Shown piece after piece: positions 22,643 through 52,735 of a DNA stretch of 64,000 bases. The notes under the pieces are model-generated. The model was not told the origin of the DNA, ran no database searches, and saw only the letters and a program-made list of their open reading frames with translations. Numbering within the stretch: the stretch's first letter is position 1; the number at the start of each line of letters is the position of its first letter. The translations under genes and the position numbers were made by a program. Source of the DNA: a virus (Duplodnaviria > Caudoviricetes); IMG/VR virus record IMGVR_UViG_2595698668_000001, positions 96,001 to 160,000 of that record; one strand, written 5' to 3'.

Positions 22643-24895
22643 TTAAATACTGCAACCAGCACACTCAGCTTCTTTGGTTACTTCGATCCCTTCTTCACTA
22701 CCATCACGAGTATTATGATAGTAAAGGGATTTCACTCCATACTTATTAGCAAAGACAACATCACGAAGAATAACGCTAATAGGAAGCTTGTTGTCTTCAT
22801 AATTAGATGGGATATAACTAGTGTTCGCACTAATACCCTGATCGAAGAATTTTTGGATGACCGCACAGATAGACAGATAACCAGTCATCCCGCCGCGATT
22901 AACCATCTTCCACAGAGGTTCATATTCATCAGCAAGGAATTCTACATCTGGAACAACCTGATTAAACGAACCATCCTTAGAAGCTTTTACGCTCACCAGA
23001 GATCGTACAGGTTCGATACCATTAGTTGCATTTAGAAGCTGTGAACTACTCTCAGCAGGCATTTGTGCAGTCACGGTATCATTACGAAGACCATGTAGGC
23101 GGATTTGACCACGCAACCATTCCCAATCTTGTTTTAGGTCATTTGGGGTTAGGTCGTCCACATTCTTGTTATACCAATCGATTGGAAGCAAACCGTCAGC
23201 CCACTTGGTTCGGTCGTGCCATTCACTACGACCCCGCTCTTTAGCAAGTTCCATAGACGCTCGAAGCAAGGAGAACTGCATAGCCTCGATATGCTCATGT
23301 ACCAGAGCAAGGGCAGCTTTGTCGTTGTATCCAACATAATTCTTTGCCAAGAAGTATGCCAAGTTTACCACACCAACACCAAGAGCACGACGTTTTTTTG
23401 CAGCAAGAGCTTGTTTGACTGGATAATCTTGATAGTCCAACAGATTATCTAGAGAACGAACGACGATTCTTGCCAATTCGAGATAATCATCTGTTGATTC
23501 AATCATACCCAAGTTAATCGCAGATAGGGTACAGAGTGCGATTTCTTCCTGATTTGATCCCATTGCATAAGTTGGTAAGAAAATCTCTTGACATAGATTT
23601 GACATTTTGATCTTTTCTTTGTATGGGGTCTGTTTGTTCATGTTATCAACAAACAAGCAATAAATCCGACCAGTACCAGCCCGTTCTGTCGCAAATGCAG
23701 TAAACAATTCAGATGCTTTGATACGCTTTTTGCGTATGACGTGGTTCATCTCAAGTGCAGCATAACGTTTCCTGAATTTGGTATCATCTGCATCATAGAA
23801 GTCTTCATACAACCGACCGCAATCAACGTCAGGGCTGAATAGGGTGATATACCCATCATCACGCAACCTCTCTAGAAACAGCTTATTGATATGCACACTG
23901 TAATCAAGACCCCGGATCCGGGTTTCATCAGTACCCTTGTTATTCTTCAATACAAGCAGTTTCTCAACCTCCAAATGCCACATAGGGTAATTCAGAGTAG
24001 CAGAGCCGCCACGTAGAGCACCTTGCGAACAGCTCTTAACCGCAGTATGGAAGTGCTTGTAGAATGGGATTACGCCGGTATGGGTTGCTTCGCCGTTGCG
24101 AATTGGTGAACCCTCCGCACGAATAGCACCAGCATTAATACCAATACCAGCACGTTGACTGATATAACTAATAATAGATGCAGACGTATCGTTAATAGAT
24201 TTCAGAGAATCGCCGGATTCAATTTTCACACACGAACTAAATTGGCGCGTTGGGGTGCGGGCACCACCCAAAATAGGGGTTGGGATTGAAATCTTAAATA
24301 GAGAAGCCGCATTATAATAATTGATTACGTGTTGAAGTCGGTTTACTTTTTCACTCTGATGTAGAGCCATAGCAATTCCCATATAAAGGAATTGGGGGGT
24401 TTCGTACATCTCCTTAGTTACTCTATTTCGTACCAAGTACTTTTCTTTTAACTGCATTGCACCAGCATATGTAAAATTCATATCTCGGGAATGGTCAATA
24501 TGAAGATTGAGGTATTCAATATCCGCTGGTGAATATTGTTTCAGAAGGTCTTTATCATAAAATCCAAGACCAACCAGTTTAGAAATATGGTCATACAATG
24601 AAATTGGATCGAATTGTCCATATACATCCTTACGAAGGGTGTACATAGTTAAACGACCCGCTACATATTGATAATCCGGTTCTTCAACGGAAATCATATT
24701 GGTTGCGGCTTTAATAACTTGCTTTTGGATATCCTTCGTGTTCATACCATCTGTAATGGATGACATTGCAGCATCAAGAATAGCGTGTGGATCTGCCTCT
24801 GTATTCTCACATGCAAATTCTATGACTTTTAAAATCTTATCCTTGCTAAATTCTTCGGTAATACCGCTCGATTTTACAACTTTACTGATCATCAA
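22643..24895 (-). CDS. nrdA: class Ia RNR large subunit
   Basis: N-terminal ATP cone, RQFSSC, SNLCQEI, TNGIEP, KSLYY, C-terminal CAGC. Confidence 0.98.
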   Translation of the reverse strand: MMISKVVKSSGITEEFSKDKILKVIEFACENTEADPHAILDAAMSSITDGMNTKDIQKQVIKAATNMISVEEPDYQYVAGRLTMYTLRKDVYGQFDPISLYDHISKLVGLGFYDKDLLKQYSPADIEYLNLHIDHSRDMNFTYAGAMQLKEKYLVRNRVTKEMYETPQFLYMGIAMALHQSEKVNRLQHVINYYNAASLFKISIPTPILGGARTPTRQFSSCVKIESGDSLKSINDTSASIISYISQRAGIGINAGAIRAEGSPIRNGEATHTGVIPFYKHFHTAVKSCSQGALRGGSATLNYPMWHLEVEKLLVLKNNKGTDETRIRGLDYSVHINKLFLERLRDDGYITLFSPDVDCGRLYEDFYDADDTKFRKRYAALEMNHVIRKKRIKASELFTAFATERAGTGRIYCLFVDNMNKQTPYKEKIKMSNLCQEIFLPTYAMGSNQEEIALCTLSAINLGMIESTDDYLELARIVVRSLDNLLDYQDYPVKQALAAKKRRALGVGVVNLAYFLAKNYVGYNDKAALALVHEHIEAMQFSLLRASMELAKERGRSEWHDRTKWADGLLPIDWYNKNVDDLTPNDLKQDWEWLRGQIRLHGLRNDTVTAQMPAESSSQLLNATNGIEPVRSLVSVKASKDGSFNQVVPDVEFLADEYEPLWKMVNRGGMTGYLSICAVIQKFFDQGISANTSYIPSNYEDNKLPISVILRDVVFANKYGVKSLYYHNTRDGSEEGIEVTKEAECAGCSI

Positions 24896-24967: not shown

Positions 24968-25870
24968 ATGGAAAAAATTAACTATGGTCACTGGGTAACT
25001 GACGAGCAGTTTGACCCAAAAACGGTTCTTGGTTTTGTGTATATGATTACTTTCTCCAATGGTAAAAAATACATTGGAGCGAAACGGGTTTGGAAAAACC
25101 TAAAACGCCCACCATCCACATACAAGAGGCAGGGTAAAACAGAATTTATTGAATCTGATTGGCGCTCATATAGATCCAGTTCAAACGAAGTGGTTGAACT
25201 GGAAACCAGAGGTATAGAGATCTCAGAGATGAGGATCCTTGCCACTTATGATTCTTGGGGTAAAGTACTTCTTTTAGAATGTATGCTCCAATTCTCACTC
25301 AATGCGTTAACCTCCGATATATACCTAAACAAGCAAATTGAAGGCATGTTTACGGGGGCATGTTTTGATAAAAAGGTATACGATGACGTTGCTCGCCTCG
25401 TTGCAATTGAGCAATATGATGAGTCTATCCCACAGGTAATTGTTTACCGTGGTGGAGACAGAAGCGTTATATGTGACAAACAATCAGCAAAAGAATACAT
25501 CAAAGCTGGTTGGTCTGTTGCGTCTTTACCAGAAAAATATCATCGTAAAAGTATTCCAATGGTTCCCTATACAATCAAATGTAAGGAAACTGGGACTGAA
25601 TATACCATCAGTGATTTCAAAACTCAATACGAAGTTTCAAAAAAACTTGAATGTGTTGCAGGGGATCTTAGTCGGCTTCGTTCTGGTGAAATTCTGAACA
25701 TAGGTTCGTACACCATGAAGATTCAACGGGAACCCCAACGTTGGGTAAAAGACGGAGTTTCATACTACAGTACAGCAGAATTGAAATCCGCAAAGGTTGA
25801 CAAATCCGAGTGTGAACACTTCCCAGCAGAAGACCGGGAAGCTTATCGGATTAGATTGTCTAAGGCTTAA
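24968..25870 (+). CDS. GIY-YIG family (homing) endonuclease
   Basis: GFVYMIT...KKYIGAK, WRSYRSSS, YLNKQI; free-standing, divergent from nrdA, behind CCCTAAATA. Confidence 0.8.
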   Translation: MEKINYGHWVTDEQFDPKTVLGFVYMITFSNGKKYIGAKRVWKNLKRPPSTYKRQGKTEFIESDWRSYRSSSNEVVELETRGIEISEMRILATYDSWGKVLLLECMLQFSLNALTSDIYLNKQIEGMFTGACFDKKVYDDVARLVAIEQYDESIPQVIVYRGGDRSVICDKQSAKEYIKAGWSVASLPEKYHRKSIPMVPYTIKCKETGTEYTISDFKTQYEVSKKLECVAGDLSRLRSGEILNIGSYTMKIQREPQRWVKDGVSYYSTAELKSAKVDKSECEHFPAEDREAYRIRLSKA

Positions 25871-26050: not shown

Positions 26051-26172
26051 ATAGATCTCGAACGTAGTGAGACGGCGTAGCCGCCTGTTCGCTTCGCTCA
26101 CACTTTCTAATTATAGATTTTCTATATAAATACTTATAGAGATTTTATACTTTGATTGCACTTGAAACTAAT
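26051..26172 (+). repeat. 122-bp dispersed inverted repeat, copy 1
   Basis: Reverse complement matches 51632-51753 at 119/122 positions. Confidence 0.95.
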
Positions 26173-26183
26173 CCATAGACACG

Positions 26184-26213
26184 AAAAGCCTACCCAAAAC
26201 AGGGTAGGCTTTT
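26184..26213 (-). terminator. terminator after gene 35
   Basis: aaaagcctaccc-aaaaca-gggtaggctttt. Confidence 0.8.
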
Positions 26214-29996: not shown

Positions 29997-30012
29997 TATA
30001 TTGCCCCTATGA

Positions 30013-30037
30013 AAAAGCCACCCCGTAGGATGGCTTT
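30013..30037 (-). terminator. GCCATCC-TACG-GGGTGGC hairpin terminator between genes 34 and 35
   Basis: Stem-loop plus T tract; same hairpin recurs at 51241. Confidence 0.7.
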
Positions 30038-30043
30038 GTTTTA

Positions 30044-33000
30044 TTAACTGATCCAAACAAAGTCAACAGACTTGGTAGTTGGGTTTGCTCTTATTTCTAA
30101 GAATTCCCCGTTACCAACTGCTATCCTAAGTTTATTTACGGTTGTTGTTCCATTCAGGTTAGAATCACCATTTACGGTTAGTGCTTTCACCGAATTGATG
30201 ATAAGCTCACCTGTCATGGTATCACCGCCCTTAAACACACGAGAACCAGATGTAGTATTCATATCGTCTATCACGGAATCCAGATAGTCTTTACGAATTG
30301 CATCATCAGGGTCAATCGGTAATGCACTTCCTATCTTAACTTGAGCATTTACCTTTAAGTCACCATTTGATTCAAACGATGATGTATTGGATGGCGAAGA
30401 TAGACCGTTAGGGCGAATTTGTAATCCACCAAGAGAACCAATATTCAAACTCTCGTTTGAGTTTATGGTTATCCCACTCTTAGAAGTATTACCCATCCAT
30501 ATGTTTTGAACACCACTGTTCTTAAAATATGTAGTATTAACAAAAGTTTTGCTTCCGGTAATAGTTTCTGCGAAGTTACCCGGTCCACGAACATATCTTT
30601 CTTCTGCATAAGCAAAACGAACAAGGTGATTTCCTGACGTTGGGTTCTGTCCGCCGTTTTGAACTTGGTTGGTGAATATTGCGTTACCATCACGTTCGAC
30701 AGTAAAGATCCTATAGTATCTACTGTTTTCGTCCATTGCGTTAAGGATTAATGGACCATCAATCGTGTTTACACCAAGATCCAAAAACGCATTGCTACCC
30801 TGACGTTTCCACTGGATCATGGATACATGAGATGTAGTCGATGTTTCGTTGAGGTAGAAATAAGGTCTAATCTTCTCAATAGACGGATTTGCAGTAAACG
30901 TCATTTCACCGGTTATTGTTTGTGCAATAGTACGACGAACCCAATCAGTTGAAGGTATACGGTTTCCACCAACCTCCATTGCACTGGCACTTACAGCCAC
31001 CGCTTTTAGTGGTAGGAAATTGGCTAATGCTGTATTCAAACCTCTTGGGGAAACCAATACATCCCCGTGTGCATAACCGGTTAATGCTCTTGTAGAACCA
31101 AGAATATCATTACCTTCAAACACAGAGTTGGCGGAGTTGTTGTTTGACAATATCGCAGTAATACCAACACCATATCTGGTATCCGTCATTCTATATCCTG
31201 CACTATTTCTAGAGCTGGTCAGAGCGGTTAACGGGGTTAGATATTTTGTGTTGTTAGTACCGGTATCAACCTCAGATTGAGTTGCAATTTGCGACAAACC
31301 AGTTTGGGTTGTAGTTGCCAACCTAGCACTCAGTTTCTTTGGAGTTACGATAATTTCGTCATTTGCGGTTCCGGTCATATCGTTTACTTCGATCTGAGTT
31401 GCAATTCTCGCAGTACCTCGTTGTGACTCAGTAGGAATAACGATATTAAAAGATTGACCTTCCCAGATGTTACCAACTGTTCTAAGTCCTGCTGTATCAA
31501 ATACAGTCAGTCTTTCTCTAGCCAACCAATTACCAAATGTTTTTGGAGTAACAAACCATTTGTCATGTAATGTCCCTGCATCTACTTCCGCTTGTGTTGC
31601 GGTTTCGGACAAACCCCAACGGGCTTCCGTTGCAGTTCTGCTTACAAGTCCTTTTATGCTAACGTGTACGTTGTCACCAGCCGGTGGGGTGTTGCTAAGT
31701 ACTTCTGCGGCGGTTGCAGCCCTTGACAACCCGGTTAGTGATGCTGTAGCCTGACGTCCTTCTAGGGTGGTCGCTGTTACTACTAACGCACCAGTTGCGG
31801 TGTCAGCAGTACCTGTGTTAACCTCCCCTTGGTTGGCAATGTACACCATACCTTGTGAAAACTCAGTTGCATTTTTCTCAAATAGAGTTTTCGGAGTGAT
31901 TACCTTGCTATGATCGTTATAATCATAAACACCTGTACCCGGAGTTGTTCTTGTGGTAGGCTTAGTTCCATTAGCTGAGACAAGAGCCGATAAACCAGTC
32001 ATAGACTCGGTGGCAACTCTACCGTTTAGGGTAGATGGTGTGATTGCAACTTGAGCCCAGTTTTCACCAGAACCGGATTGTGCGTTTGCTTGACTCTGTG
32101 TCGCTACCTTCAACAACCCACGCATTGTTGTTGTAGATAGACGGTCGTTTAACAGGAACGGGCTTATTGCCACCCCAGACCATGCTTCATCGGATAGGTT
32201 TCCACTAACTGCCTTGGATTCGCCATTAGATGCATATCGGGTGATACCACGACGGACGGTACTTGCCGTTTTATTAGCCAATGTTTCTGCGGTAACAAAA
32301 TCCTCACAATCTGGGTTTTGACCGGTGGTGATCTCTTCTTTGTTCTTGTTTACAGATGCTTGAGAAGCAATAGCAGCCATACCATAAAATTCTGGTACAT
32401 TGCGGTCTACCCGATACGGAATCTCCGACATAGTAACAACAGACCAAACGTCTTTACCAGAACCCAGAGCATTTGTGAAGTACACAAATTCCCACTGTTC
32501 CCCCCGGTTTTGGATATCAAATGACTGAGTTTTTACGGTCTTTGATTCCATATTAGCGAGAAAATCACGATACGAGCTGATCCGTGGATTCATCAACGTA
32601 TTTCCATCCGGAACAAAGAAATCATTTGTGCTGGTTGCGTCGATGTTTAAAGTTAAAGTAGAACCCCTTTTCATGTATCGTGTGTCTATAAAGAAGCTAT
32701 CACCTCTTGCAGCATCGCGGGGGAATGTAATGTTGACAGTCGAGGGTGTTTCAGTATAAACTACTAGTCGGTCGTTTGGTTGACCCAAGTATGTAGATGT
32801 TTTAACGCTTTTCCAACGACTATAGCTATCAGAATCAAAAACTCGCCATGCGTTGAGGGTTGAATCAAAGACAAACATACCCCAATCAGTAGAATCGAAA
32901 ACAACCGTTTTCATTGGGGTCGATCCGTATTCAACTATGATGTTGTGGCTACTACCCGGATGAACGTTTACGGTTGTCTTTGTTACTGGGTTATTACCAT

Positions 33001-50362: not shown

Positions 50363-51235
50363 ATGGCATTGAATTATGTAGAAGAACCAGTAGAAAAAGA
50401 AACTAAACCAAAAAAGTCTACTGCGAAAAAACAAAAAGAACTTGACCTTGGGGTAATCAACGAAATTGTTGATGCTAATACCGCACCAGAAGCAAAGGCT
50501 AAAATTCAAGCATATGCTAAAGAGTGTGGATTTAAAATTAGCAAGTCTAATACTTCTGTTGACGATATGATCGTCAAACTCCTTGAAATGGCGGACGCCA
50601 AAGAGAATGAAAAACTGGATCTTGCACCAGAACCAAAAGAAAAAACCCCTTTTATTGAACCTGTTGTAGTCGATGATGAATTCGACGTTGTAGATGAGGT
50701 TATTGAACTTGGTGTGGTTGAATCAATCAAAATTGATGATGGGGTAGTTAATATAAATACTCCAAACGATGTGAAAATTGAATTCACTCCACCAAAACCA
50801 CTAGAATATGTTGATGCTTCTGGGTTTAAAACTCTAGACGAATTAATTGAAGATGAAAAGACGTTTGTTAAAGAAAAAATGAAATCTGAAATTGAGGAAC
50901 CAAAGGATGATTGGTCTCCAATTGCAGGACCAGAGCGCGGTTTAATCCCATCGTTAAAGAATAATCAAAACCAATATACCAGAGAACCAGATTTGACCTA
51001 TGGTTTCAAACCAAAAGTAAATCTAATTGGTGCAGTTGGAAACCAATACCTTAATTGCCCATATTGGATTCTTGATTGGATTCTTGAGAAGGGGCCGACT
51101 TGGAAGAGTATTATTGATACTCATGAACGTGAACCGGATAAAGCACTTCTGAAAACAGTTCTTTATTACATCCAGATTAATGGCAGCGTGACATTGCGAG
51201 AAAGTCGAAATTCTCGTTTCCATACCATTTACTAA
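50363..51235 (+). CDS. inh: inhibitor of prohead protease Inh
   Basis: C-terminal LIG...YLNCPYWILDWI...YYIQINGSVTLRESRNSRF; late promoter upstream. Confidence 0.88.
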   Translation: MALNYVEEPVEKETKPKKSTAKKQKELDLGVINEIVDANTAPEAKAKIQAYAKECGFKISKSNTSVDDMIVKLLEMADAKENEKLDLAPEPKEKTPFIEPVVVDDEFDVVDEVIELGVVESIKIDDGVVNINTPNDVKIEFTPPKPLEYVDASGFKTLDELIEDEKTFVKEKMKSEIEEPKDDWSPIAGPERGLIPSLKNNQNQYTREPDLTYGFKPKVNLIGAVGNQYLNCPYWILDWILEKGPTWKSIIDTHEREPDKALLKTVLYYIQINGSVTLRESRNSRFHTIY

Positions 51236-51240
51236 TATCT

Positions 51241-51266
51241 AGCCATCCTACGGGGTGGCTTTTTTG
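51241..51266 (+). terminator. terminator after inh
   Basis: agccatcc-tacg-gggtggct-tttttt. Confidence 0.85.
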
Positions 51267-51538: not shown

Positions 51539-51631
51539 TTTCGTATTGTATCAGACACTACGAATGTTTTTAACTTTTATACTTAGGTGATCTCTCGATC
51601 ACCTTTTTTGTATCTTTTATATACAAAAATA

Positions 51632-51753
51632 ATTAGTTTCACTTGCAATCAAAGTATAAAATCTCTATAAGTATTTATATAGAAGATCTATAATTAGAAA
51701 GTGTGAGCGAAGCGAACAGGCGGCTACGCCGTCTCACTACGTTCGAGATCTAT
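51632..51753 (-). repeat. 122-bp dispersed inverted repeat, copy 2
   Basis: Reverse complement of 26051-26172 with 3 mismatches. Confidence 0.95.
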
Positions 51754-51791
51754 TTATTTATAATGCTATTTAGGTGTGTTAAAATACTATC

Positions 51792-52352
51792 ATGAAAAGG
51801 AAAATTGTAACTCTTATAGGAACCAGATATCCTAATGAAGAGTATAAACAGTTGATGATAAGAATTGGAAAAGCTTTTTCGGATCGTGGTTATGGTGCTA
51901 GGTCTGGTGGTGCCATTGGTTCTGATACACTTTTCCTAACCGAATATGACCCAACATTAACCATTGTATATCGTCCTGATGATAGACCCGGTTGTGTTAA
52001 TGTCAAAAACCATGAAAACTATTATGAATTTGAATTGCTTGCTTCCCGTGTTCATGGGTCTGGAGTTGGCTGGGAATTTATGCCAATCGGTCACCAAGAA
52101 TTACACGCTCGGAACGTTCCTCAAGTTATGGGATTAAACCTCAAGTCTTATTCTGACTTAGTTGTATTTTGTGCAGAGGAATCGATACATGGTACTGTAT
52201 CTGGTGGAACTGCTACTGCGGTTAAAATAGCAAGAAGCCTAAATATACCTACCCTAAACATTATGAACCCAGTTCAAAGATCAAAACTTTGTAAATGGTT
52301 GGGTATTGATGATATACCAGTATTAGAAAAGGTTGACATTTTCAATCTCTAA
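51792..52352 (+). CDS. DprA/SMF-like SLOG Rossmann-fold protein
   Basis: LIGTR, RSGGAIGSD, HARNVPQVMG, GGTATAVKIA...IPTLN. Confidence 0.8.
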   Translation: MKRKIVTLIGTRYPNEEYKQLMIRIGKAFSDRGYGARSGGAIGSDTLFLTEYDPTLTIVYRPDDRPGCVNVKNHENYYEFELLASRVHGSGVGWEFMPIGHQELHARNVPQVMGLNLKSYSDLVVFCAEESIHGTVSGGTATAVKIARSLNIPTLNIMNPVQRSKLCKWLGIDDIPVLEKVDIFNL

Positions 52353-52390
52353 ATATTGTTGTGGAATAATAACAATAAACGAGGTTGAAA

Positions 52391-52735
52391 ATGAAAAGCT
52401 CACCACGTAAGATCGCCAGAACTGCGCATGATGCGATTCGACGGTTTAATTTAATACTAGGCGACACCGATACATTGTGGAAAGAAGAACCCGAAAAGGT
52501 TAAACGGGTCTGGACTAAACATGTAACATATATAATCGACCACCCTGATTCTGATGCTCGAACTGTTCATGAGCTTTGGAGAAATTATAAAGAGGGAGAA
52601 GGTTGGATATTTGGTGAAGATAAATCTAGAGACGAGAAAACCCATCCATGTTTGACATCTTACGATGAACTACATGAAATAGAAAAGATGAAATATTATA
52701 TTTTCATCGAAACTGTTCTTGAGCAATCAAAATAA
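52391..52735 (+). CDS. RyR-domain protein
   Basis: HELW...EGWIFGEDKSRDEKTHPCLTSYDEL...EK, the ryanodine receptor repeat signature. Confidence 0.8.
   Translation: MKSSPRKIARTAHDAIRRFNLILGDTDTLWKEEPEKVKRVWTKHVTYIIDHPDSDARTVHELWRNYKEGEGWIFGEDKSRDEKTHPCLTSYDELHEIEKMKYYIFIETVLEQSK

Follow-up and report, generated by a model that had tools for sequence, protein, structure and literature searches.

The question raised by this locus is what function a short repeat, half of it AT-rich and promoter-like and half of it GC-rich and full of potential hairpins, could have in the genome of a T4-like phage. The repeat lies in a window of 64,000 nt, bases 96001-160000 of the 231,743-bp virus record IMGVR_UViG_2595698668_000001 (Caudoviricetes), where it forms an inverted pair of 122 nt (26051-26172 against 51632-51753, 98% complementary); a direct-repeat search of the window found none because the pair is inverted. 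The initial annotation of the copy at 51632-51753, made from the letters alone, had read it as a promoter, an AT-rich tract and GNA-triloop hairpins, and had proposed that it works as single-stranded DNA or encodes a small structured RNA. We find that the element is real, conserved and non-random, and that this interpretation is partly supported. With less than even confidence, we put first the reading that it opens the duplex in a transcription-coupled way, as a site of the T4 oriF/oriG kind, and also acts as a local promoter, and we rank close behind it an expression cassette with no part in replication. Unless the genome is named, positions are those of the window.

Matches to the element and its flanks come from T4-like phages of Aeromonas in the genera Ceceduovirus and Ishigurovirus (18 records and 95 places, the best at 95% identity over 241 nt). 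The 231.7-kb genome has exactly six copies. A profile of the AT-rich half (nhmmer, whole genome) retrieved all six with E values of 1.9e-19 to 7.8e-15, and the next matches, from E 0.0022, were the reverse strands of the copies themselves. The corresponding profile of the GC-rich half led to the same six places and found no solitary GC module in the genome; each AT module is likewise paired with a GC module. The copies stand at genome positions 147.7 kb (A, + strand), 122.1 kb (B, -), 81.1 kb (C, +), 189.9 kb (D, -), 32.1 kb (E, -) and 219.9 kb (F, -). In the window, copy A spans 51632-51753 on the + strand (genome 147632-147753) and copy B spans 26051-26172 on the - strand, with its AT module at ~26105-26172 and its GC module at ~26057-26103. 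When 50 copies from nine phage genomes were oriented on the AT half and compared, the anatomy resolved into two separable modules, an AT module of ~66 nt and a GC module of ~45 nt, and the two-part plan first read from this genome, a promoter-like AT tract plus GC hairpins, was kept among them. We call the two modules together the cassette. Titles and the opening parts of abstracts in the literature on these phages do not describe it.

The AT module of copy A (51632-51699, + strand, nhmmer E 1.9e-19) has partial dyad symmetry, seen in the match of its reverse strand to the module's own profile at positions 19-68, and face-to-face duplicates of it occur in phage 65, Aswh_1 and ZPAH1. Within one genome the module is nearly invariant. 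It carries a rightward sigma-70-like pair, TTGCAA-N17-TATAAG (51643-51671 on the + strand, with TTGCAA at 51643-51648 and TATAAG at 51666-51671), whose first hexamer also appears as GTGCAA, TTGTAA, TTGAAA or ATGAAA and which reads GTGCAA-N16-TATAAT in the phage-65 clade. All the motifs named in the initial annotation, including the GTGCAA that replaces TTGCAA in the 26-kb copy, lie where it had placed them in both copies. A second rightward -10-like hexamer, TATAAT at 51689-51694 (+), stands without a -35 some 8 nt ahead of the GC module; 27 of 28 unique AT-module rows keep it. Alignment of the reverse strand further revealed a leftward -10-like hexamer, TATACT at 51653-51658 (-), pointing away from the GC module; in all 28 unique rows this mirror hexamer, TATA[C/G/A/T]T, keeps its A at position 2 and its T at position 6. 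The alignment also contains an invariant AATCAA core, which may resemble the IHF consensus.

Beside the first TATAAG, at 51672-51679, the + strand reads TATTTATA, that is, TATAAATA on the - strand (26125-26132 in copy B), a motif with 20 occurrences in the genome, six of them inside the six copies. The late promoters of this phage read CCCTAAATA, in contrast to the TATAAATA of T4; there are 24 copies of the former on both strands, among them those before gp24 (54067, -) and gp23 (55932, -), which bears out the earlier remark that the late genes use a different motif. The opposite-strand TATAAATA to which that remark was attached is present in all six copies but is missing from the phage-65 clade and from an unrelated viral contig described below, and a conserved late promoter on this strand is not supported.

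The AT modules are among the least stable duplex DNA in the genome. In a nearest-neighbor calculation over its 231,693 50-bp segments, the six rank 0, 2, 3, 16, 17 and 72 by instability, the segment of copy A starting at genome position 147651 (dG -49.5, rank 16). With 30-bp segments, six of the seven distinct regions of lowest stability are cassettes, and with 50 or 70 bp six of the lowest ten are. In the 3-kb loci of the relatives the least stable segment falls inside the element in 17 of 17 cases, and in the unrelated contig the element is second least stable. This instability fits an unwinding element and, together with the even spacing of the six copies discussed below, agrees with the earlier description of the locus as a promoter plus such an element.

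The GC module of copy A (51701-51747, + strand, nhmmer E 2.6e-12) is, from its folds and pair counts, an imperfect palindrome. Its general plan is GTGAG-(mini-hairpin)-CGAAC, a central GC hairpin and CTCAC-(mini-hairpin)-GTTCG, realized here with a left arm GTGAG-CGAAG-CGAAC and a right arm CTCAC-TAC-GTTCG. The central hairpin, CGGC-TAC-GCCG at 51721-51731, reads CGGC-GTA-GCCG on the - strand and there contains GCGTAGC, a GCGNAGC mini-hairpin. The left-arm mini-hairpin GC-GAA-GC (GCGAAGC, 51707-51713, +) also occurs as GC-GTA-GC, GT-GAA-AC and TC-GTA-GA, and the right-arm one is AC-GTA-GT on the - strand (51736-51742; ACTACGT on the + strand). Two interleaved pairings span the arms, GTGAG/CTCAC (51703-51707 with 51733-51737) and CGAAC/GTTCG (51713-51717 with 51741-51745).

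To compare structures, 22 distinct GC modules were aligned and three drawings were scored. The proportion of cells that pair was 89.6% for a nested long hairpin, 90.9% for a pseudoknot and 91.5% for three small hairpins, against 19-47% in slid controls. The check for compensatory changes suggested in the initial annotation found them: 2 of the 4 central-stem pairs and 3 of the 4 pairs that make up the two 2-bp mini-hairpins change on both sides, and no other pairs do. The mini-hairpin exchanges are C-G to U-A in 8 of 22 rows on the left arm and A-U to G-C in 3 of 22 and C-G to U-A in 1 of 22 on the right. In the helices that join arm to arm in the nested and pseudoknot drawings, all changes are one-sided and preserve G-U pairing. 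The interleaved pairings from which a pseudoknot had been proposed do exist, but their complementarity also allows nested or three-hairpin drawings. As for an H-type RNA pseudoknot, none of the 10 pairs in its own two helices changes on both sides, and the same 5-mers are nested in some variants and interleaved in others. The RNAalifold consensus is itself nested and weak (-1.4 kcal/mol, 9 pairs).

We count 17 distinct versions of the central hairpin, including one on the unrelated contig; their stems are complementary in every case and have six cores (CGGC, CGCC, CGC, CCC, CGCG and CATGC), and there are 11 distinct loops. The triloops are enriched in GNA, the loop type that the initial annotation had read in this genome: GNA or its complement TNC accounts for 12 of 15 distinct triloops, divided six and six between the two strands as seen from the promoter, and the loops that do not fit are the other 3 of 15 triloops (AAA, TTT) and two tetraloops. 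As for coding potential, a small ORF over the module (MSEANRRLRRLTTFEIY...) was rejected, the frame being lost in copy E through a 2-nt difference and its continuation differing from locus to locus.

A DNA-level hairpin or cruciform is favored over a functional RNA because the GNA loops are balanced between the strands, the module occurs inverted and RNA folding shows no preference for the sense strand (9 sense, 12 antisense, 1 tie; n=22). At the orthologous dprA-like locus, Aswh_1 and ZPAH1 carry the GC module as an exact reverse complement; in copy F it is inverted, and in one case it stands on the opposite side of the AT module. The module would thus probably act as DNA, as had been suspected from GCGNAGC-type loops. 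A 2026 review (PMC13037366) reports extraordinary stability for such mini-hairpins in DNA and far lower stability in RNA, and places them at the priming sites of G4, St-1 and alpha3, at ssiA and in the N4 hairpin promoters.

The other half of the original proposal, a gene for a small structured RNA (a regulatory RNA, a ribozyme or a CRISPR-repeat mimic) transcribed from the AT module, is the explanation to which we give the least credence. A promoter-like module does lie directly upstream, the stems covary, and at the 189.9-kb locus of this phage, Aswh_1 and ZPAH1 a terminator hairpin follows the GC module. However, the other five loci lack such a terminator, the module stands inverted behind the same promoter, and its 11 loops vary freely. 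Searched at E values up to 10, Rfam gave only chance snoRNA-like matches and no covariance model that describes the element: the best (E 0.41, 22.5 bits against a gathering threshold of 70) lies outside it at 51777-51862, and the only match within it is U7 (16.6 bits, E 0.69, gathering threshold 34). A scan for tRNA and tmRNA genes found none.

A duplex-opening site would bring the two modules together in four steps, and we infer from their anatomy that transcription start, hairpin extrusion, R-loop formation and priming could all take place at the cassette. RNA polymerase would start in the AT module, which is dyad symmetric, promoter-like and the most meltable part, moving rightward from TTGCAA-N17-TATAAG and/or from the invariant TATAAT before the GC module, or leftward from the mirror -10. 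Opening of the AT module would then free the adjacent imperfect palindrome, which would form GNA-capped mini-hairpins on the displaced strand. This opening would most likely be used as in T4 oriF and oriG, the transcript staying annealed as an R-loop and priming leading-strand synthesis; the hairpins would meanwhile hold the other strand open so that helicase and primase can load. For a gene that the cassette faces, the same promoter would also give the transcript and its leader. In favor of this reading are the copy number with its synteny and conservation, the concerted evolution of the copies, the helix instability, the even spacing, the signs that the GC module acts as DNA, the AT module of an unrelated phage and the gene contexts that suggest a promoter.

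The bolder claim, that this T4-like phage group uses the six cassettes as replication origins or primosome-loading sites, we regard as possible but doubtful. Such origins would be homologous, evenly spaced promoter and unwinding elements with GNA-capped DNA mini-hairpins that hold the displaced strand open; gene conversion or a common recognition factor would maintain their uniformity, and unrelated phages infecting one host could exchange them. Among T4-type phages, whose known origins share no motif, they would then make up the first origin family defined by sequence. For the question of how these phages choose where replication starts, the six cassettes offer a directly testable, sequence-defined candidate set, which joins a promoter-like tract with the most easily melted DNA of the genome and with a type of mini-hairpin otherwise met at priming sites.

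A number of results weigh against a duplex-opening site. The promoter signals are weak, with -35 matches of 3 to 4 in 6, a TATAAG without the last T and a TATAAT without a -35. The pair TTGCAA-N17-TATAAG, called a promoter in the initial annotation, has the sequence given there, but a sigma-70 scan did not call it because the last -10 base is G. The ordinary early promoters of the phage are of the form TTGAC(A/T)-N17, unlike the element, with TTGACA/T/G in 27 of 52 candidates. The phage encodes AsiA; MotA domains were not found in it, which counts against a middle-mode promoter. Helix instability is not specific to origins because in a T4 control the annotated oriF was only in the top 1.9% of segments, the least stable T4 segments lying elsewhere. 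In this phage GC skew turns at gene-strand switches and not at the elements. The single sequence folds no better than shuffles (z -1.46 with RNA parameters, -0.37 and -0.53 with DNA parameters), so that the case for structure rests on comparison between copies. Against a chance rate of 1/8, the nominal binomial P of 4.6e-9 for GNA/TNC triloops overstates the case because the counted variants are related. The even spacing speaks for the site: the gaps between the six copies on the circular map range from 25.6 to 49.0 kb, and the probability of so small a standard deviation is 0.0012 for random points and 0.0008-0.0013 when real intergenic sites are drawn. But this test was post hoc, conceived after the positions were known, and its evidence is that of one lineage because the relatives are syntenic. 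Finally, the T4 origins have no common sequence motif and only two of them are understood (PMC3016281), whereas the six cassettes are homologous.

The history of the copies bears on whether they have a function at all. Ceceduovirus and Ishigurovirus phages carry copies at the same six loci, whose circular order is the same in phage 65. AT-module paralogues within one genome share 93-96% identity, compared with 79-83% for orthologues between clades and 80-83% for non-orthologous pairs (copies D and F of this genome were left out of the comparison by its anchor pattern). These figures are those of concerted evolution, orthologues being no more alike than non-orthologous pairs. At locus III (81 kb) the alignment of this phage to phage 65 comprises exactly the cassette (1499-1613, 84%) with unalignable flanks, and the cassette stands as a conserved island in diverged intergenic DNA. 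Its left edge there adjoins a 76-amino-acid ORF in this phage and avDM6 that is missing in AS-sw and phage 65, and at its right edge phage 65 and avDM6 have additional sequence of 0.5-1 kb.

The partial copies in the records of AS-zj, AS-sw, Aszh-1 and AsSzw2, four in all, contain N or long homopolymers of A or T, have chimeric flanks and were treated as faults of assembly. Of 24 sequencing runs, those labelled as RNA have small shares, and the four runs compared with the element consist of contigs, from which neither starts nor ends of transcripts can be read. Contigs from run X6, an independent assembly, stop inside the element, and their loose ends match the flanks of other copies. The repeat therefore seems to break short-read assemblies of these phages, which matters for annotating them for aquaculture phage therapy.

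The cassette family, as judged from database matches, appears narrow. In phage T4 there is no similar element (best E 0.144). A host repeat is not supported, the two-arm GC pattern giving 23 scattered matches in unrelated bacteria and archaea and none in Aeromonas. In metagenomes the AT pattern matched at least 117 loci, of which two pass the AT-module profile, both phage-65-like. Among viral contigs, the search turned up the unrelated one and the end fragments of two others, which bear a related inverted GAGCGAAGCGA pair. On those two contig ends (74-125 and 183-235), GTGAGCGAAGCGAAC and its near-complement CTCGCTTCGCTCG surround a 25-nt AT-rich spacer, and a GATTCC-TTCG-GGAATC hairpin follows the pair.

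In its 16.4 kb the unrelated contig has genes for HK97-type protease, portal and terminase proteins and for an Ant-like regulator. Its AT module lies within a 1.4-kb non-coding stretch that separates divergent gene blocks and is flanked by inverted copies of GTGAGCGAAGCGAAC, the left arm, and by a CATGC-GAA-GCATG hairpin. The same non-coding region has, at contig-locus positions 1296-1340 and 1945-2080, three direct repeats of AATGACACTAT and a palindromic TTCCGAAYAATATTCGATTT motif in two copies, which look like iterons or operators.

A selfish or passively spreading repeat, like a miniature inverted-repeat transposable element (MITE) or the scar of a mobile promoter stem-loop, without any function, could explain why the modules are shuffled, inverted and found on either side of each other, why indels adjoin the cassette, and why it is common to an unrelated phage, in which alone the AT module lies between inverted GC arms, as if between terminal repeats. 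We nevertheless consider it very improbable. Unlike a transposon remnant, the cassette occupies the same six loci in two genera, with the copy number fixed at about six and no target-site duplications at its edges. This genome holds no solitary modules, the cassette is strongly conserved where the surrounding DNA has diverged, and the partial copies look like products of assembly.

Somewhat less improbable, yet still unlikely, is a protein-binding or structure-specific DNA site with neither promoter nor origin function that organizes the chromosome at regular intervals, its AT dyad bound by an architectural protein of host or phage and its cruciform-prone palindrome targeted by recombination, junction-cutting, topoisomerase or clamp-loading proteins. 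The dyad symmetry with its reverse self-matches, the face-to-face duplicates of phage 65 and Aswh_1, the AATCAA core and the even spacing would all suit such a site, and concerted evolution is expected if all sites fit one binding protein. However, no candidate protein was found: a shared trans factor was not seen in 16 kb of the unrelated contig, only a lysozyme and a GIY-YIG endonuclease being common to it and this phage. The outward -10 hexamers and the gene contexts would, moreover, have to be coincidences.

Those gene contexts bear on a promoter role. Copies A, B, E and F point to the next gene; copies C and D point away from their neighbors, and there it is the leftward hexamer that faces a gene. 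The intrinsic terminator of the upstream gene (51585-51612, +, an 8-pair stem and a T run) lies 20 nt before copy A, outside the repeat. Just upstream of copy B, a hairpin GCCTACCC...GGGTAGGC with a T run marks the end of the tail-fiber gene (26188-26209, -); it was read directly and not called by the scan. The terminators before the two copies are unrelated sequences. Downstream of copy A lies a co-oriented gene (51792-52352, +) that is annotated as DprA-like in relatives and has no Pfam match. Copy B precedes nrdA-nrdB-nrdD, the next co-oriented gene being nrdA (22643-24895, -, after the phage 65 annotation), past an inserted homing-endonuclease gene. A promoter role is supported because copies A and B follow hairpin-T-run terminators and precede co-oriented genes.

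The endonuclease gene between copy B and nrdA (24968-25870, +) is of the SegE GIY-YIG type (PF19835, E 3.1e-30), lies on the opposite strand and has a CCCTAAATA late-promoter motif 26 nt ahead of its start (genome 120934). The same place is occupied in phage 65, and a link of the repeat to homing endonucleases was rejected, the gene being single-copy in the genome. The gene after the DprA-like one (52385-52735, +) encodes a RyR domain (PF02026, E 1.5e-10).

The gene contexts can also be explained by an expression-only cassette, a serious contender that we would believe only a little less readily than a duplex-opening site. It would consist of six special promoters, possibly bidirectional and activator dependent, with a structured 5' leader and no replication role; the GC palindrome would be an RNA stem-loop that stabilizes or processes the transcript, and the copies would be homogenized by phage recombination in the manner of PeSLs (promoter-early stem-loops), regulatory cassettes that are mobile in T4-type phages (Arbiol 2010; Comeau 2014). 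Four of the six copies face the next gene, the other two having a gene on the leftward -10 side, and copies A and B come directly after terminators. At locus V, and in Aswh_1 and ZPAH1 at a seventh locus, the GC module directly adjoins the Shine-Dalgarno sequence. The one-sided arm changes keep G-U pairing, the least stable segments of T4 are likewise not at its origin, and small-ORF indels stand at both ends of the cassette at locus III, as described for PeSLs in PMC2839356 and PMC4122927. On the other hand, expression alone leaves the even spacing unexplained, and the hexamers are poorer than those of the ordinary early promoters. In addition, the GNA loops fall on either strand irrespective of the direction of transcription, the GC module is found in both orientations at the same locus, folding has no sense-strand preference, and the consensus RNA fold is weak, as given above. 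Were the cassettes only promoters, they would still define a small, unusually conserved regulon with a dyad-symmetric control region common to an unrelated phage, and would extend the PeSL idea of recombining regulatory cassettes to a different architecture.

Other hairpins and words were noted around the copies. A second repeat, the terminator-like hairpin AAAAAGCCACCCCGTAGGATGGCTTT, occurs at at least three loci, 30012-30050, 51226-51264 and beside copy D (~189.83 kb in the genome), its two arms in the window being 85% complementary. A long hairpin CTAGAATCAATTCC...GGAATTGATTCTAG follows the GC module of copy F (genome 219.74-219.80 kb), with similar ones in Aswh_1, avDM6 and phage 65. The word GAATTGAT is over-represented in the genome (32 against ~12 expected).

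Among known systems, PeSLs resemble the cassette in general design. Like them, the cassette is a short composite of promoter and stem-loop, intergenic, repeated in a T4-type genome and homogenized by recombination, and small-ORF indels abut it at locus III. As PMC2839356 and PMC4122927 describe it, a PeSL has a near-consensus sigma-70 promoter with a terminator stem-loop upstream and is present in dozens of copies in hyperplastic regions. Of four testable features of PeSLs, the cassette shares the adjoining indels and departs from the other three: its hexamers (TTGCAA/GTGCAA/ATGAAA and TATAAG) are weak; its repeated hairpin is downstream of the AT module in five of six copies and without a T run; and its copies are exactly six, evenly dispersed and syntenic across genera, in place of being clustered.

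The GC module shares with GCGNAGC or GCGNNAGC mini-hairpin DNA (G4, St-1, alpha3, ssiA, N4) its C-GNA-G triloops on GC stems of 2-7 bp. Depending on variant and strand, its central hairpin contains GCGTAGC, CCGAAGG, CCGGAGG, GCGAAGC or GCGCAGC, and CCGAAGG, the loop of copy E, is the loop sequence reported for ssiA in PMC13037366. The known mini-hairpin signals belong to single-stranded genomes or are served by a dedicated polymerase or primase, whereas the cassette lies in a double-stranded T4-like genome, and its hairpins must therefore first be extruded.

The T4 origins provide a model for this opening. According to PMC3016281, oriF and oriG are each ~100 bp long and combine a promoter with an A+T-rich unwinding element. 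They differ from the cassette in that their promoters depend on MotA, which was not found here, and in having no adjoining palindrome where the cassette has its GC mini-hairpin module. The likenesses are of several kinds. Like oriF and oriG, the cassette has a length of ~100-120 bp and a -10 hexamer next to or within easily melted A+T-rich DNA, and the AT tract could supply the unwinding element of such an origin, though easy melting is a non-specific property. Two of the six cassettes stand beside homologues of inh and gene 26, genes from which oriF in T4 is 0.5-3.3 kb away, a weak positional hint. Like oriF, which is also the uvsY promoter, the cassette doubles as the putative promoter of an adjacent gene and is present, as origins are in T4, at several places in one genome.

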